From: an uncultured Spirochaetota bacterium
Lineage (GTDB): Bacteria; Spirochaetota; Brevinematia; Brevinematales; JAOACQ01
Direction: 5' to 3'
DNA length: 64,000 nt
NCBI GenBank assembly: GCA_963783575.1
Contig: CAWAOD010000009.1
Coordinates: 320,001 to 384,000, forward strand
The position numbers and the translations under genes were made by a program. Positions 6,950-64,000 of the stretch are shown here, piece by piece. The number at the start of each line of letters is the position of its first letter. The first letter of the stretch is position 1. The notes beneath the pieces were generated by a model. It made no database searches, had not been told where the DNA came from, and saw nothing but the letters and a program-made list of their open reading frames with translations.

Positions 6950-8545
6950 ATGAAACAGGAAAGGCTGGGAATACTTATTTTTTTATTCATTCTATTTTTT
7001 ATCCTTCTTGAAGTCAGAATAGTCGCAATATCTTTATTCCCTGACCCAAGGCTGAAAAATATCGACGCAAAACAGGCAAAAAGGGGCACAATTTATGACA
7101 GGAATAAAAAAGAACTCGCAGTTTCTACTGCATTTTATTCATTTTATGCTCGTCCTGTCTTGTTAAATATTGATTCAAAAAACAATGTTTACGATTATCT
7201 AAGGCAGAACAGCACAATTTCAACAAACGACCTGGCAAATATTTATCAGGAAAAGAATTTTGTCTGGATAAGGAGAAAAGCCGGTTTACAGGAAATTACT
7301 CCTGTAAAAGATTTTATCGATTATCAAAAAAAGAATAATTTGCTTACAAAAGATGAGCTGGGCATTGTCCCGGAACAGGGCAGATATTATTCCATAACTG
7401 CCGCAGCGAATTGTATAGGTGTAGTTGGTATCGATAATAACGGGCTTTCCGGTTTGGAACATTCTCTCGATTCTTACCTTGACAAAGGATGCGATGTTTA
7501 CACTTCATTAGATTCAGATCTCTTAACAATAGTTTACGAAGAATTAAAAAGAGGTATACAAATAAGCCAGGCCGAAACTGGAAGCGCTGCCATTTTGGAT
7601 GTTGAAAACAGGGAAATATTAGCGCTTGTTAATTACCCGGGCTTTGATCCTAATGATTATAAAACAATAACCCCGGATAATTTAAAATCCGGGTTTTCAT
7701 CGGTTATTTTTGAGCCGGGTTCCGTTATGAAGCAGTTCAGCGCTGCATTTGCCCTTGAAAAAGGATACGCTACACCGGATAAACCTGTTTTTCAATGCAC
7801 TGGTAATGCCGCTATAAAGGATCAGGAATTTAATTGTCCCGTCGCGCATGGAAGCGTTGATCTTACAAAAATAATACAAAAATCGTGCAATATAGGTATG
7901 ATACAATTGGCTGACCGTTTTAACAGGGAAGACTTTTACAATTTTTTGAGGGGTTTCGGATTCGGCGAGGCTATCGATCTTCCATTAAACGATATTGAAC
8001 CTGGAATTTTGAGACCTGTTTCAAAATGGTCTTTTATATCCAAGTATTGGATTTCAATAGGTCAGGAAATAGGAGTCACAACCGTGCAGTTGCTCACTGC
8101 TTCCAGCGTCATCGCCGGCAATGGTATTTATAAGACACCGCTATTGGTTAAAGCGATTTTGGACGATAAACAAAATAATATCTACAAGCCTGATTTAAAT
8201 GAAAGAACATTAATTTCTCCGGGTACTTCAATTTCCTTGTTAAAGATGATGGAAACTGTTGTAAGCGAAAATGGGACAGCTATTGCCGCTAAAATCGAGG
8301 GAATGCCTATAGCCGGGAAAACGGGAACAGGTCAGATCGCAAAGGAGGGCGGCGGCGGATATTATAAAGACCTTTTCAATTCGGTCTTTATCGGTTATGT
8401 CCCCGCTAATAAACCAAAATTTACTGTAGTGGTTGTAATTAATAAACCGAAAGGAGAAAAACATACCGGAGGCCAGATAGCTGCGCCTGTTTTTGCCGAT
8501 ATCATAAGAAGAATGCTTTCTTCGACATCATATTTTTCCAATTAA
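6950..8545 (+). CDS. Class B penicillin-binding protein (FtsI/PBP2 family)
   Basis: N-terminal anchor, RGTIYDRN, GLSGLE, EPGSVMK (SxxK), SCN (SxN), KTGT. Confidence 0.9.
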   Translation: MKQERLGILIFLFILFFILLEVRIVAISLFPDPRLKNIDAKQAKRGTIYDRNKKELAVSTAFYSFYARPVLLNIDSKNNVYDYLRQNSTISTNDLANIYQEKNFVWIRRKAGLQEITPVKDFIDYQKKNNLLTKDELGIVPEQGRYYSITAAANCIGVVGIDNNGLSGLEHSLDSYLDKGCDVYTSLDSDLLTIVYEELKRGIQISQAETGSAAILDVENREILALVNYPGFDPNDYKTITPDNLKSGFSSVIFEPGSVMKQFSAAFALEKGYATPDKPVFQCTGNAAIKDQEFNCPVAHGSVDLTKIIQKSCNIGMIQLADRFNREDFYNFLRGFGFGEAIDLPLNDIEPGILRPVSKWSFISKYWISIGQEIGVTTVQLLTASSVIAGNGIYKTPLLVKAILDDKQNNIYKPDLNERTLISPGTSISLLKMMETVVSENGTAIAAKIEGMPIAGKTGTGQIAKEGGGGYYKDLFNSVFIGYVPANKPKFTVVVVINKPKGEKHTGGQIAAPVFADIIRRMLSSTSYFSN

Positions 8546-58206: not shown

Positions 58207-59903
58207 ATGAAAGTAACTGTACCGAAAGAAGAGATCGACAAGCTTATCAATGAATACGGATCAACGGAAAACGAGGCAGTTAAGGCGTTTCTGGACGCAC
58301 AACAGGCTTCCCAGGATGCTTTTCAGCAGGTGCTCAGCAAACAGCTTGGAGCCAAAAAGAACGGAAGCAACGGTAAAAGGGTAAATACCGTTTTTACCCC
58401 CCGGCAGATCAAGGAACACCTGGACCGATACGTTATAGGCCAGGAGGAGTACAAAAAGCGGCTTTCAATCGCGGCGGCATTCCATTTTGCAATACTGCAC
58501 TACCTTGACGAGAATCCCCAGGAAACAATGGTAAAACGCTTCCGCAAGAAAAACACAATCATAGCCGGCCCTTCCGGCAGCGGAAAAACATACAGCGTGG
58601 AAGTATTGGGGGATCTTCTTGAAGTCCCTACGCTTATTATAGACGCAACTGATTACACCGAAGCCGGGTATGTCGGTAAAAGCGCCGATGATATGATCCG
58701 TGAATTGATCGATATGGCCCCCGGGGCCACACATAATGAAAAAGGCGAATTCATTAATAAATACGGCGGAATTATTTTTATTGACGAAATCGACAAGAAA
58801 GCCAAAGACGGCCAGCTTGCCGGATATGATATTTCCCGCGAAGGATTCCAGAGAGCTGTATTGAAGCTGATAGAACGTAAGTTTGTTTCCATAGATAACC
58901 CGATGTCGCCGGCATCGCAGATTCAGGAAGTTATCAACGTCCAGCGCGGCGGCGGGACAAAAAAGCAGGAAAACATGATCAGCACGGAAAAGATTTTGTT
59001 CATTGTCGGCGGTTCTTTCCAGCGGGTGAACGACAGCCTTGAAGAGATAGTCAAGGACCGGATTAAGCATCAATCCGGCAGGGTCCGGGATGACGGAAGC
59101 TTTATGGTAACAGGATTCGGCCCGGATGAATCTGAAGGAAGAGCGAAGGCAATGCTGAATTTATACAAGGAAGCCGATGTCGACGATTATATCCGTTTCG
59201 GCCTTATACCCGAACTTGTGGGAAGAATTCCTATCAGAAGCTACGTGAACCTTCTTTCTAAAAACGATCTTATCCGAATTATGAGAGATACGGAGGATTC
59301 CATCATTCACCAGTATATCGCCGAATTCAAAGCCTTCGATATAGATATTCATTTTAACGATGAGGCTATTGAATTTGTCGCGGGGCTTTCGGAAAATAAA
59401 AAGACCGGCGCGAGGGCGCTTGTAAGCGTCTGGGAGAATATTTTCACGGATTTTCAGTATGAAATGCCAGGCTCTCATTTCAAGGAATTGACTATCAGTG
59501 AAGAATTATGCAGGGCCCTAAAGACGCCCTGTTAAATCTTCTTGAACTGTCTCCTTTTGTCGATTTTACCGACAGGTTCAACAAGGAATATAATATCGAG
59601 CTGGTTCTGGAACAGGAAGCCCAGGAATATGTGGAAAATTTTGCCCGACAGAACGGCATTCAGATATCCGACACTTTGAAACAACTTTTAAAAGGGGCAT
59701 CCTCTCTTAATTATATGAATATTACAGGAAAATACAATATTACCGTTGGTATGCTCAAGGACCCTATTTATTTCGATAAGCTGTTTACCGAATGGTACAA
59801 GCAGTCGAGATCAGACGGGCCGCTGCCGGACCTTCCGCAGACAGAACAACCTGAAAATAAGCAGAATGATTCAGGCAAGGCTGAAACCGGCGGAGTTGAA
59901 TAA
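58207..59903 (+). CDS. ClpX-like AAA+ ATPase lacking the N-terminal zinc finger; frameshift at ~59515
   Basis: YVIGQ, GPSGSGKT, DATDYTEAGYVG, FIDEIDK, FGLIPELVGR, TGARAL. The overlapping ORF 59508..59903 joins via one base missing in agggccct. Confidence 0.8.
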
Positions 59904-59921: not shown

Positions 59922-60758
59922 TTGTTATTATTCGTAATGACCGGAAACTCGGAAGCAAAGCCGTTAATTAAGAGCTGGCGTTTAAAAAAAGATCCTGCCG
60001 TCAGAAGAATGGAATATTATTCCGGAGATAACGCCCGCCTTATTATCAGCGGTAAAGGAATTGTCAGAACATCAGCCGCGGCTGCTTTTCTTCTCGGCAA
60101 AAATAACTACAGAGATACGGATATTTTAATCCATATAGGATTCTGTTTTGCCGTAAATACAGATTTCGCTCCAGGAACCCCTGTTATATGCAACAAAATT
60201 ATCAACGAATCATCGGGAAAATCATTTTACCCCGACATCATCTTTAAACATGAATTGAATGAATCATCAATTTCAAGCTATTCGTTTTTCAAAGGAATTG
60301 ATGCGGATGAAATAAAAGAAGCTGGGCTTTTCGATTCCGAAGCGGCCGGCTTTATTGAAAGCGCTCTTGCCTTCCTGCCTCCACATCGCGTTTTATGCAT
60401 TAAATTTATAATCCCGGCCGAAGAATACAATTCAAAGAGCGTCAACCGCCTGGGCAACAAATATATTTATTATAATCATCCTTTAATAGAAAAATTAATT
60501 CTTGCCGCTCAAACTTATTTTACAGAAAAACCAATTGCCATTCCCGATGATGAAATCGAATTTCTTGAACAAATATTTGTCAGACTGCGACTGACGGAGA
60601 CAATGAAGCATAGACTTATGGAACTTGCAGAGCATTACATATTTAAACATCAATGCGGGCTGGATGTATTAAAACCTTACCTGTTAATTGAACCGGAATC
60701 AAAACAAAAAAGAAATTCAATTTTCAATTCCATTGTAGACATACTTTCGGAAGGATGA
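59922..60758 (+). CDS. Nucleoside phosphorylase-like protein
   Basis: EAKPLI, ISGKG, HIGFC, FYPDI, DSEAAGF; upstream of the SPL-like gene. Confidence 0.65.
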   Translation: MLLFVMTGNSEAKPLIKSWRLKKDPAVRRMEYYSGDNARLIISGKGIVRTSAAAAFLLGKNNYRDTDILIHIGFCFAVNTDFAPGTPVICNKIINESSGKSFYPDIIFKHELNESSISSYSFFKGIDADEIKEAGLFDSEAAGFIESALAFLPPHRVLCIKFIIPAEEYNSKSVNRLGNKYIYYNHPLIEKLILAAQTYFTEKPIAIPDDEIEFLEQIFVRLRLTETMKHRLMELAEHYIFKHQCGLDVLKPYLLIEPESKQKRNSIFNSIVDILSEG

Positions 60759-60765
60759 TTTTAAT

Positions 60766-61749
60766 ATGTTTTCACACCTATATATTGAAAAAAAGGCTTT
60801 AGAATATCCAATGACCCGGAAAATTTTAAAAAGTTTTCCAAATTCCGTCAGAATAACAATTGATCATTACAAGGATTTTTTCTGCCGTCCGGATCAGGAT
60901 TATACCGCCCAGAAATCTTCTCAAAAGCTTATACTGGCCGTTAAGGAGGATAGGTTTCTTTACAGGGTGCCGGAAATCTGCATTGATAATGACCGGGAAA
61001 ATTTACAGAACAGCGAAATATATTACTCTTCAGCGGTAATAAACTGCATATATAACTGTGAATACTGTTTTTTACAGGGTATGTACCCATCCGCGAATAT
61101 TGTTGTTTTTGTCAATATTGATGATTTTTTCGGGGCTGCGGAAAATAAAATCAATGAATCGAAAGAAAATCATATTAAATTGAAAGTTTCTTATGACTCA
61201 GATATCATAGCATTGGAAAACATCGTACCATATGCTTACGAATGGATAAGATTCGCAAAAAGAAACCGGAGAGCAACGGTCGAAATCCGTACAAAAAGCG
61301 GAAATTTTAATTCGATATCGATGCTTGACCCCCCTGAAAATATTGATCTTGCCTGGACATTATCCCCGCAATCCGTTGCCGAAGAATTCGAAAATGGCGC
61401 TCCCTCGCTTGAATCAAGGATTTCATCCGTCCGGCAGGCCGTTGATAAAGGCTGGAAAGTCAGGCTTTGTTTTGACCCTGTGATAATGGTTAAAAACTGG
61501 AAAGATATTTATTCGGAATTTATTGATTATATTTTCACTCAATTGCCTTACGGTGAAATTCATGATATAAGCACAGGCGCATTCAGAATGCCGTTTGAAT
61601 ATTTCAAAAAGATAAAAAAAATCAGGCCTGATTCCGGTTTATATTACACTAAGCTGGAAAACCGTAGCGGAAATATCCGATATCCCGAAAAGTCAGAATT
61701 TGAGATGCTGGATCATATCGGCAATTGCATAAATAAATATAAAAGATGA
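60766..61749 (+). CDS. Spore photoproduct lyase-like radical SAM protein
   Basis: NCIYNCEYCFLQGMY, EIRTKS, AWTLSP, RLCFDP. Confidence 0.85.
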   Translation: MFSHLYIEKKALEYPMTRKILKSFPNSVRITIDHYKDFFCRPDQDYTAQKSSQKLILAVKEDRFLYRVPEICIDNDRENLQNSEIYYSSAVINCIYNCEYCFLQGMYPSANIVVFVNIDDFFGAAENKINESKENHIKLKVSYDSDIIALENIVPYAYEWIRFAKRNRRATVEIRTKSGNFNSISMLDPPENIDLAWTLSPQSVAEEFENGAPSLESRISSVRQAVDKGWKVRLCFDPVIMVKNWKDIYSEFIDYIFTQLPYGEIHDISTGAFRMPFEYFKKIKKIRPDSGLYYTKLENRSGNIRYPEKSEFEMLDHIGNCINKYKR

Positions 61750-61780
61750 TAAGGCTTACCGAACTGATGTTCGGCGGTTG

Positions 61781-62041
61781 ACTAGGGGGCCGCTCGAGAG
61801 GGCGGGTCATTAACGGGAAGAGCGCTGCGAAAGAAAGTAACTTTTGCAGCCCTTCGTAACTCACGTCCTGTTCGAACAGATCTACGGGCACGCGCGAGTC
61901 CTATCGCGCTCGCAAAAGTGACTTTCTTTCTCCGCTGTGCTTTCCCGTGAATCTAGTAAAGAAAGAACAGCCGGGAAATTAGTTTATGATTAATAATAAT
62001 CTGAAATTGACAGTTCTTTTTGGTTATTAGCCGGCTGTTCT
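61781..62041 (+). ncRNA. Candidate structured RNA/DNA element B
   Basis: ccgctc-GAGA-gggcgg; long stem 61813-61847 / 61912-61948 with two internal hairpins; 11-bp IR agaacagccgg/ccggctgttct (61964-62041). Confidence 0.5.
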
Positions 62042-62102
62042 GAATATTTACAAAAGTCCCCTGTTTGTGGAAGAGAGGTTATATCTGTTTACAAAATGAT
62101 TC

Positions 62103-62132
62103 TTGACAATCAATAAATTAAAATGCTATAAT
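62103..62132 (+). promoter_or_regulatory. Consensus sigma70 promoter facing the cassette (Pc-like)
   Basis: TTGACA-18 nt-TATAAT with extended -10 TG (tgctataat). Confidence 0.75.
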
Positions 62133-62234
62133 AAAAATATTTATGTCCGTTGACCGGCAGAATATTTTTTTATAATATTACTAAGTTTTTTAATAAGTTC
62201 GTATTTTACAAGTATTTTGAAGTAATATATGAAG

Positions 62235-62292
62235 TGCGCATATCACTCCGAAATTAGAGTAATATACGCAATGCGTATATATCGAGTTGTAC
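62235..62292 (+). other. attI-like recombination site
   Basis: Three TGCGYATAT boxes (62235 +, 62262 -, 62272 +), then 5 nt and GTTGTAC (62286). Spacing matches the attC right end gtgtacgc-ctgcc-GTT. Confidence 0.6.
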
Positions 62293-62331
62293 GAAAGAAA
62301 TGCCCAGTAAGTTTATTTTTTGGAGAGTGTT

Positions 62332-63735
62332 ATGAATAAAATAATTATTTTATTATTAGTAATATTGTTTAATATCTTTTTATCTAACAATTTATATTGT
62401 AATTGGTCTCCAGTTGATGGTTCGTCATTAAAACAACCAAGAACAATGCAGCTAATTAATAATAAGTCTATATTTATTGAAAATGAAACAATTTCAATAA
62501 AAATTGAAAAAGAAAGTGCTTTTGTTAGTGTATTATATAAATTAAAAAATACAATAAATAAACAGGATGTTAATGTCAGTTTCCCAGTTGAATATTTATT
62601 AGAACCATATTTTGATGAGTTTAATAATAGTAATAAGGTTGACTATTTCAACGCTTATGAAAAAAGTGCTGATAACTATCAAAAAATAGTTTGCAATGAA
62701 TTATCAATAACAAATAATTTTAATAAAGATAGAGATGAATATAATATAACTCGATGGTATAATGCAAAGCTCAATTTTGTAAAAAATGAACTTAAAGAAA
62801 TTAAAGTTGAATACAAGATGAGTCTCGGTTTTGGAGATGGTATATCAACAATAGATTATTTTGTTAGATATTCACCAAGGACTTTTAAATATTTATTAAC
62901 ACCTGCAAAAAATTGGGGAAATGGGTTAGCCAAACATATAGAAATTAATATGGATTTAAATGATTTAAAAACCAATAATTTAATACTAAATAATATAAAA
63001 TTTCCTGGAAGTAAAAATAAATTTGGAATTTTCCAGGGATTAATAAACATTATTTCCCCAAATAAAACATTAATTAACAATAAATATTATTATAGTTTTA
63101 AATCAGATAATTTCAATTTTAACAATGCAGAAAATATTGAATTGGAATTTGATGTGGGTTCAATTTATAATTCTCAAATAGCATTAAGTAATAGAATTTC
63201 TAATAATCAAATTATTTCAATGAAGTCTTCTTCTACTCTTATAGATAAAAAGTATAGTTATTCAGTTTCTAATTTAATTGATAATAATTTTTCTACTGCT
63301 TGGGTTGAAGGTTCTTCTGGCCAAGGAATCGGCGATTGGGTTGAGTTCACATTTGATAATCCGAAAATAGGTTATATTGGAATTATCAATGGCCTTTTTA
63401 TAAATGAAAAGCTATATTATGCCAACAGTAGAATAAAAAAATTAAATTATTATGTAGAATATAATACAAATTATAATGATCCAAATAACATAACTTTTCA
63501 ACAGCAATATTTAACATATCATACTAATAATTATGAATCTTATGACATTAACTTTGAAGATAAACCTTATTTTAATATTTCTAAGTCAAATTTTTATAGA
63601 GTATTAGAAAGAGTATATGAAAACCCAGATTCTCCATTTCCAATTAAAAAATTTAGATTAACAATAAAAGATGTTTATCCTGGAAAAAGTTATAAAGATA
63701 CCTGTATTTCAGAAATATATTTTTTAAGCAATTAA
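62332..63735 (+). CDS. Cassette-borne exported protein: DUF4424-like N-terminus plus NADase-type glycan-binding (discoidin-like) domain
   Basis: Signal peptide; TAWVEGSSGQGIGDWVEF, NSRIKKL, VYPGKSYKDTCISEI; visibly more AT-rich than neighbours; RBS ggag before ATG 62332. Confidence 0.75.
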   Translation: MNKIIILLLVILFNIFLSNNLYCNWSPVDGSSLKQPRTMQLINNKSIFIENETISIKIEKESAFVSVLYKLKNTINKQDVNVSFPVEYLLEPYFDEFNNSNKVDYFNAYEKSADNYQKIVCNELSITNNFNKDRDEYNITRWYNAKLNFVKNELKEIKVEYKMSLGFGDGISTIDYFVRYSPRTFKYLLTPAKNWGNGLAKHIEINMDLNDLKTNNLILNNIKFPGSKNKFGIFQGLINIISPNKTLINNKYYYSFKSDNFNFNNAENIELEFDVGSIYNSQIALSNRISNNQIISMKSSSTLIDKKYSYSVSNLIDNNFSTAWVEGSSGQGIGDWVEFTFDNPKIGYIGIINGLFINEKLYYANSRIKKLNYYVEYNTNYNDPNNITFQQQYLTYHTNNYESYDINFEDKPYFNISKSNFYRVLERVYENPDSPFPIKKFRLTIKDVYPGKSYKDTCISEIYFLSN

Positions 63736-63759
63736 GTAAAACAACTGGGCGTTTCCTTC

Positions 63760-63983
63760 GTACAACATGGCGTACACGTTCCGCTCCGTCCTCACTAGCG
63801 TTCCGGGCGGTGCTCAGGCTTCGCCACATTTCGCTTTGGCACGGATTTTTGCCTGAAATTTATTAAAGAGGGAATATGATGTTTAATAATGACTGTATTT
63901 ATAGAAAAACTTTACGGCAAAGTGGCAAAAACACGTGCCAACCCTGACGGGCCGCGAAACGTCGTGTACGCCTGCCGTTATAT
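63760..63983 (+). other. attC-like site (~224 bp)
   Basis: R'' gtacaac (63760-66), ggcgtacac (63769-77) / gtgtacgcc (63964-72), R' gttatat (63977-83); nested stems ttggcacg/cgtgccaa and tttttgcc/ggcaaaaa. Confidence 0.75.
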
Positions 63984-64000
63984 GCAATGCCTTAAATTTT

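Follow-up and report, generated by a model that had tools for sequence, protein, structure and literature searches.

Long, interrupted complementarity between the ends of gene cassettes in integron-like arrays of an uncultured Spirochaetota bacterium

A gene cassette near the end of the window, the whole stretch of 64,000 nucleotides from an uncultured Spirochaetota bacterium that was analysed, raises the question why its two ends are complementary over 23 bp and not just over the 7-bp core box. The preliminary description had read this match as strong evidence for real excision and integration of a unit that had once existed as a circle, and as a possible clue to how cassettes are formed; the terminal inverted repeats of an unrelated transposon were named as the alternative. 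The locus presents the following features in the order of the sequence:

61786..62040, no strand assigned: dispersed hairpin-rich repeat (blastn of the 480 nt before attI gave 38 pieces; inverted pair 61824-61935)
62103..62132, + strand: promoter-like site with perfect sigma70 hexamers (12/12) and an 18-nt spacer, the predicted cassette promoter
62233..62288, + strand: attI-like site without adjacent integrase, putative crossover G/TT at 62286-62287
62286..62308, + strand: start arm of cassette 1 (R' and extension), with the first stem 62286-62295, the conserved mismatch 62296 and the second stem 62297-62308
62332..63735, + strand: cassette gene, an ORF of 467 aa with 23 % GC versus 41 % in the upstream genes
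63744..63766, + strand: end arm of cassette 1 (extension and R''), the complement of the start arm, with the conserved mismatch at 63756
63767..63976, + strand: inner attC-like part of 210 nt, delimited by inner pairing and fold, with a short spacer, an L''-like arm, a long variable loop, an L'-like arm (63960-63970) and a 6-nt spacer (63971-63976)
63977..64000, + strand: start arm of cassette 2, continuing past the window end; its own end matches at 14/18 positions

Upstream of these features, a gene for a ClpX-like AAA ATPase (58207-59903) is split into two overlapping frames near 59510-59535, possibly by an assembly error, and 59922-61749 holds a gene without Pfam match followed by a spore-photoproduct-lyase-like radical SAM gene. 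The cassettes further downstream (L131:3824-5161, 7401-7820 and 7875-8306) encode an HNH protein with repeated zinc-ribbon motifs and, in a two-gene cassette, a polyketide-cyclase-like protein together with an EVE-domain protein.

Read against the reverse complement of 63744-63766, the sequence at 62286-62308 agrees at 21 of 23 positions, the exceptions being position 11 (A 62296 against C 63756) and position 16; in a looser alignment the inverted pair covers 33 nt at 82 %. This direct comparison confirmed the earlier figure. As a measure of chance, among 149,296 GTT-anchored 23-mers on both strands of the whole genome, just two had more than 18 matches to the start of cassette 1, namely that start (23) and the end arm of the same cassette (21). 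Within positions 12-22, 10 of 11 agree, compared to 3.15 of 11 in non-cognate cassette pairs (binomial P ~3e-5). The attC-like stem after the cassette gene was detected by inner pairing alone, without use of the outer arms, and tandem co-oriented cassettes in the array are parted by AAC...GTT imperfect inverted repeats. The next R' (63977) is unlike the R'' of cassette 1, as had been described, and the proposal of an integron-type array in which every cassette carries its own R' is supported. The next cassette had been predicted to end in the complement of its start; this end was located at 64544-64558, on the same contig just past the window, with 14 of 18 positions matching and position 11 again mismatched. 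A long stem is not special to cassette 1 but a common trait: 22 of the 25 well-parsed cassettes of the genome have stems of at least 15 nt.

A transposon or MITE with terminal inverted repeats was ruled out. Cassette 1 is single-copy in the genome, the second stems differ among cassettes, and target duplication and transposase are both absent: no direct repeat of 2-12 nt flanks cassette 1, and the Pfam search of its ORF returned no transposase, the single match being PF25302 (E 2.9e-27). The 467-aa protein is likely a secreted or surface protein with a C-terminal F5/8-type domain. For its N-terminal part a DUF4424-like identity is a lead only (DUF4424 clusters with a score of 0.91, the family on 15 % of the members); residues 25-280 had no homolog among 792 candidates. 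A search of 61700-64000 against Rfam revealed no known RNA family at E up to 1.

The attI-like site of the window is 94.7 % identical over 57 nt to a site that immediately follows a tyrosine recombinase gene on contig C5; this gene points into a long cassette array of its own. Ten attI-like sites are present in the genome, alike up to the GTT, different beyond it and followed by different cassettes. Nine are solo, with no recombinase next to them (on C4, C5, C9, C13 and C16, including 62233-62288), the tenth lies behind the frameshifted recombinase on C5. The same promoter-like motif was found 122-412 nt upstream of all nine solo sites, and the hairpin-rich repeat of 61786..62040 occurs upstream of several attI platforms as well as elsewhere in the genome. 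As judged from their sequences, the attI-like copies are probably sites where new cassettes insert at G/TT, and the array in the window may represent a satellite platform, consisting of promoter and attI, that would be served in trans. All parsed cassettes face away from attI. In a relative of the same family (G011), four intact recombinase copies (L027, L034, L035, L023) each have their own attI, unlike the solo platforms.

A block of cassettes 2 and 3 and the start of an insertion sequence (63975-66612; L131:2975-5612) recurs at C5:472317-474954 with 99.85 % identity, starting 2 nt ahead of GTT. Because the left breakpoint of this shared block lies at the crossover, the arrays appear to exchange cassettes at the expected junction. 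Mobility, claimed in the preliminary description on the strength of the arm match, thus finds its support in this block, whereas the arm match itself is not proof of excision and integration. Behind the insertion sequence the attC remainder differs between the two copies, a difference that points to recombination between insertion-sequence copies or to an assembly join. Elements of this type with a DUF772/DDE transposase, which we take to be IS1182, lie at cassette ends at L131:5225-6981 (window-equivalent 66225-67977) and in other arrays. Their left ends directly follow AAC in 19 of 20 matches, and in 9 of 10 matches the right end is followed by a duplicated 4-mer and the inner part of an attC. 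Similar arrangements occur in L027, L034 and the canonical array L098; a search by title found no literature on insertion sequences at cassette ends.

The recombinase on C5 (G000:C5:457099-458190, L001) is the only one of its type found in the genome. Its gene is frameshifted twice in the assembly; a Logan-contig protein from another assembly reads through the 3' break, and the 5' break persists as found. Compared to the canonical spirochaete IntI, this recombinase and its intact relative P0002, from an uncultured Spirochaetota bacterium, have a gap of 41 residues. The catalytic residues are invariant in 87 homologs. Whole-protein fold searches covered the recombinase core only, for which VchIntIA and the archaeal XerA were the nearest solved structures, and the model of the N-terminal part was searched with Foldseek only. 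The N-terminal 70 residues gave a profile match to the HARP domain of SMARCAL1 (PDB 4O66, E 3e-7). Pfam HARP (PF07443) was matched by 47 of the 87 homologs at E up to 0.05, with the N-terminal piece of this genome's own recombinase at E 0.0027, below the cut-off. HARP was also the top Foldseek match of the N-terminal model, though a weak one (E 0.026). We regard the N-terminal domain of the insertion-less recombinase as HARP-like, weakly so by fold; the title of PDB 4O66 names HARP a substrate recognition domain.

Relatives were collected by genome searches, a contig scan with one protein having yielded 6 loci. Among 54 recombinase loci, several of them redundant, 29 had a cassette-start pattern within 330 nt after the gene, and an attI-like junction follows the insertion-less gene after ~60-190 nt in many lineages. 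P0002 was matched at E <1e-45 in 104 of 301 genomes of Spirochaetota, a count that takes in some other recombinases, and at E <1e-55 in 11 of 51 genomes of one Bacteroidota order; a phylum-wide search around a Bacillota record matched that genome alone (1 of 149, two genomes unscored). The genome studied here also contains several tandem pairs of other tyrosine recombinase genes (C5:3150-32371 and C15:6582-27999), unrelated to the arrays as far as examined.

Cassettes beside insertion-less recombinases were compared with cassettes beside canonical IntI. The cassette ends were set by inner attC pairing, attI or an adjacent insertion sequence, not by the arm match being measured; each end was compared with its cognate start and with non-cognate starts, duplicates were removed, and an R-box match of at least 6/7 was required. 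After these steps, insertion-less recombinases were represented by 170 of 182 cassette pairs and canonical IntI by 86 of 112. The pairs dropped for an R box below 6/7 (12 of 182 and 26 of 112 overall, 5 of the 30 distinct pairs in this genome) most likely have missed sites between their ends; many relatives' contigs stop soon after the recombinase and contributed no cassettes. Stems of at least 15 nt, mismatches allowed, were present in 140 of 170 cassettes beside insertion-less recombinases and in none of the 86 beside canonical IntI. The medians for the insertion-less groups were 21 nt in this genome (n=25), 20 in other Spirochaetota (29), 18 in family f15 (75) and 15 in the order of the Bacteroidota record (41), those for the canonical groups 8, 9 and 8. 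Per array, the median was at least 14 in 13 of 14 insertion-less arrays and at most 12 in all 14 canonical ones; these 28 arrays are related to each other, so that stem counts are not independent samples. Co-location in the 28 arrays suggests that the stem type is tied to the insertion-less enzyme.

The additional length has a particular structure. Position 11 is paired in 2 of the 170 insertion-less cassettes, versus 18 of the 86 canonical ones, and is A/G in 151 of 170: 98 % of the starts have A here and 91 % of their partners read G, so that most cassettes would have a T.G wobble on the bottom strand. Beyond it, positions 12-15 match at 72-95 % in cognate pairs versus 19-56 % in non-cognate pairs. 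The uninterrupted run of the arms is only 9-10 nt and falls inside the 9-11 nt given in the available text of PMC2727003; the extra length therefore consists of a fixed mismatch and a second stem. The second stems are cassette-specific (24 distinct among 25 in this genome) and range from ~4 bp in Bacteroidota to ~11 bp. Since this length is variable, most of the second stem cannot be a strict requirement of the enzyme. At mismatches outside positions 10-11, bottom-strand wobbles were favoured clearly in this genome alone (11 versus 2), the ratios in the other groups being 2:3, 18:10 and 5:3.

Homologous cassettes showed how the arms change. Of 29 full-length homologous cassette pairs, 18 were in register, 10 of these from five members of one family; in the 11 left out, an indel shifts the register. 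The 18 pairs presented 24 compensatory and 8 other stem differences. Such changes would fit selection on pairing or templated correction, not an untouched scar of birth; because related cassettes change both arms together, the stem looks maintained. As a clue to cassette formation, the long stem therefore holds in a weaker reading than first proposed, the compensatory changes pointing to upkeep after formation. At L038 and L123 (G296), a cassette family of ~260 bp has members that are 73-93 % identical and carry compensatory arm changes.

The long complement could in principle be a by-product of cassette making or repair, with one end copied from the other, either by templated synthesis at birth or by hairpin-templated correction, while the enzyme needs the first 9-10 bp only. 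Copying would agree with second stems that are nearly all different, with close homologs that carry double changes and no single-sided intermediates, and with a stem length that differs by lineage; the origin of cassettes is unknown according to the portions consulted of PMC5371416 and PMC4889954. Still, we judge this explanation unlikely: pure copying would erase the mismatch at position 11, which stays in 168 of 170 cassettes, one homolog pair of 73 % overall identity keeps its start arms identical over 20 nt, and canonical cassettes are without the second stem. Copying and function are compatible, not exclusive.

It is very improbable that the cassettes are of the ordinary integron kind and depend for their movement on a canonical IntI that the assembly lacks, with the XerA-like gene on C5 as a bystander and the long match as the upper tail of the known extension of 9-11 nt. 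The GTT/AAC boundaries, the folded attC and the attI with promoter are all standard, and the extension to 9-11 nt is on record in the accessible part of PMC2727003. In four class 1 cassettes the runs measured 9-13 nt, and three of the four pair at position 11; these cassettes came from a CDS-anchored search that was credible for 4 of 16 genes, and were picked by best run and hence biased upward. On the class 1 plasmids, the repeat-family filter gave false sites from the shared backbone, and a walk from attI gave one credible cassette. The genome is incomplete (completeness 89.85 %), so that an unseen IntI copy is possible, but neither in this genome nor in 11 genomes from its family did any IntI pass the TIGR02249 cut-off. 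Furthermore, the attI-like junction lies ~60-190 nt behind the insertion-less gene in many lineages, and no canonical cassette of the 86 reached 15 nt.

When cassette 1 was folded as an in-silico circle, 21 of the 23 outer positions paired at P ≥0.8 on the top strand and 22 on the bottom strand, whereas in the array form none of them exceeded P 0.1. With DNA parameters, the predicted folding energy was -68.5 kcal/mol for the circle, including the full stem, and -51.5 kcal/mol for the array, including none of it. An extended attC stem in the circular form, as had been proposed, is thus predicted by the fold; the complement alone does not prove a past circle. The predicted bottom-strand pairing of the GTT/AAC box had a median of 0.97 in circles versus 0.19 in arrays (n=14), and 4 of the 14 array junctions were predicted to fold well (P 0.81-0.97). 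The modelled folds would bias the system to integration over excision, a bias that is not universal in view of these four junctions. On the inner side of the site, the L'-like arm starts 6 nt from GTT. Its position 8 is G in 16 of 18 sites of this genome, and the A-C/A-G pattern that comes next is also present in R''; the arm repeats the pattern of the outer arms, with G at arm positions 8 and 11. Several attI copies carry a matching CG 12 nt from GTT. The bulge of the attC-like site is on the L' side, and the inner attC part, which moves with the upstream cassette, has its second arm at a fixed spacing of 6-7 nt.

Least probable is that the ends pair with each other in the linear array while it is single-stranded, so that the gene forms a loop; the cassette would then be a small element, non-autonomous and bounded by terminal inverted repeats, and the attC-like stem would be secondary. 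Arms of 15-25 nt are able to pair over such a distance, and poor folding is frequent among array junctions, but a target duplication is absent, the inner attC part travels with the cassette at its fixed arm spacing, and all parsed cassettes point away from attI.

The sequence comparisons favour a different reading, which is probably correct: the 23-bp match would represent the cassette's own end arms, forming the outer half of a folded single-stranded site that would be complete only in the excised circle and would be recombined into attI by an insertion-less, integron-like tyrosine recombinase. The folded site would be a near-symmetric pair of ~11-bp binding arms around a short asymmetric spacer, and at the end of each arm an unpaired or wobbling position would come before further duplex. 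The crossover is placed at R', given that GTT opens the first cassette and that the inner part accompanies the upstream cassette. By the polarity with which tyrosine recombinases usually cleave, a crossover at R' corresponds to the bottom strand, which may be the strand cut here. Different cassettes supply the two arms in the array form, so that poor pairing of the R box is predicted there, and integration would have the advantage over excision. The HARP domain of SMARCAL1 binds forks or junctions of single- and double-stranded DNA; speculatively, the HARP-like domain might read the distal mismatch in place of the absent insertion.

We suggest only tentatively, and with less than even confidence, a second, widespread integron class in Spirochaetota and Bacteroidota. 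It would be characterised by a HARP-containing recombinase without the insertion, by near-symmetric folded sites with a mismatch ending each 11-bp arm, by a private outer stem acting as a one-way integration latch, and by one enzyme for many satellite platforms of promoter and attI. Such a class might represent an independent solution to the step from Xer-type recombination to integrons, or a surviving intermediate in it.

Among known systems, the sedentary chromosomal integrons of the Treponema type, with co-oriented intI, resemble these arrays in a recombinase transcribed towards attI, in one-gene cassettes bounded by GTT/AAC and in folded attC-like sites, as far as described in the consulted sections of PMC3607928. 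Their integrases carry the 41-residue insertion, whereas the system here lacks it and has a HARP-like domain. Canonical spirochaete cassettes pair over ~8-9 nt, in contrast to 15-25 nt with a fixed mismatch here, where the inner site measures 140-240 nt. Relative to the canonical attC (59-base element, VCR), the first 9-10 consecutive pairs obey the rule published in PMC2727003, in the part of it considered, and the bottom-strand crossover at R' would be shared. The sites here differ by the second, cassette-specific stem past the position-11 mismatch, by an R'' that often departs from RYYYAAC and by the bulge of the L arms, which commonly measures 2-3 nt and lies on the L' side, whereas the canonical site has one extra base, in L''. 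In cassette 1, the canonical anatomy (RYYYAAC, a single extrahelical base in L'', 57-141 nt) is replaced by an R'' with G at the second box position, a bulge on the L' side and an inner part of 210 nt. Sequence features thus point to an integron-like system that appears to lack two defining traits of integrons, the IntI insertion and the canonical attC anatomy.

CALIN, clusters of attC sites without integrase, are similar, by the available text of PMC4889954, in having no neighbouring integrase and in the exchange of cassettes between arrays. Unlike these, the array here retains both an intact attI and a promoter, a combination present at nine loci, and therefore resembles a satellite platform more than a piece of an array. 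The attP of the CTX phage, used by XerCD, shares with this system a folded single-stranded site and a tyrosine recombinase without an I2-like domain; in the excerpt of PMC4792948 considered, its stem mimics a plain duplex without extrahelical bases and is used by host enzymes, in contrast to the dedicated recombinase beside attI and the conserved unpaired features here. For the 'integron-like' subgroup of tyrosine recombinases (NCBIfam NF040815), the term 'attC' is absent from the main text of PMC8138268, and the passages of it consulted describe no arrays for insertion-less members. Archaeal IntIs do carry the extra domain, as stated in the accessible portion of bioRxiv 10.1101/2022.02.06.479319. 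Titles and abstract openings in the literature, with subscription papers mostly outside the search, described no split long cassette ends, no arrays of insertion-less integrases and no HARP-integrase fusion.

In the part of PMC8138268 consulted, the IntI insertion is called essential if integrons are to function. It also serves to detect integrons, so arrays of the insertion-less family would be logged as integrase-less clusters or missed. The split stem provides a simple sequence signature for these arrays. It also offers a direct test of how a recombinase lacking the insertion can use a folded single-strand site, a matter that touches the question of integrase evolution raised in the available text of PMC4792948. 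If the latch model is true, this family would possess a directional recombination system with a nearly free site sequence.
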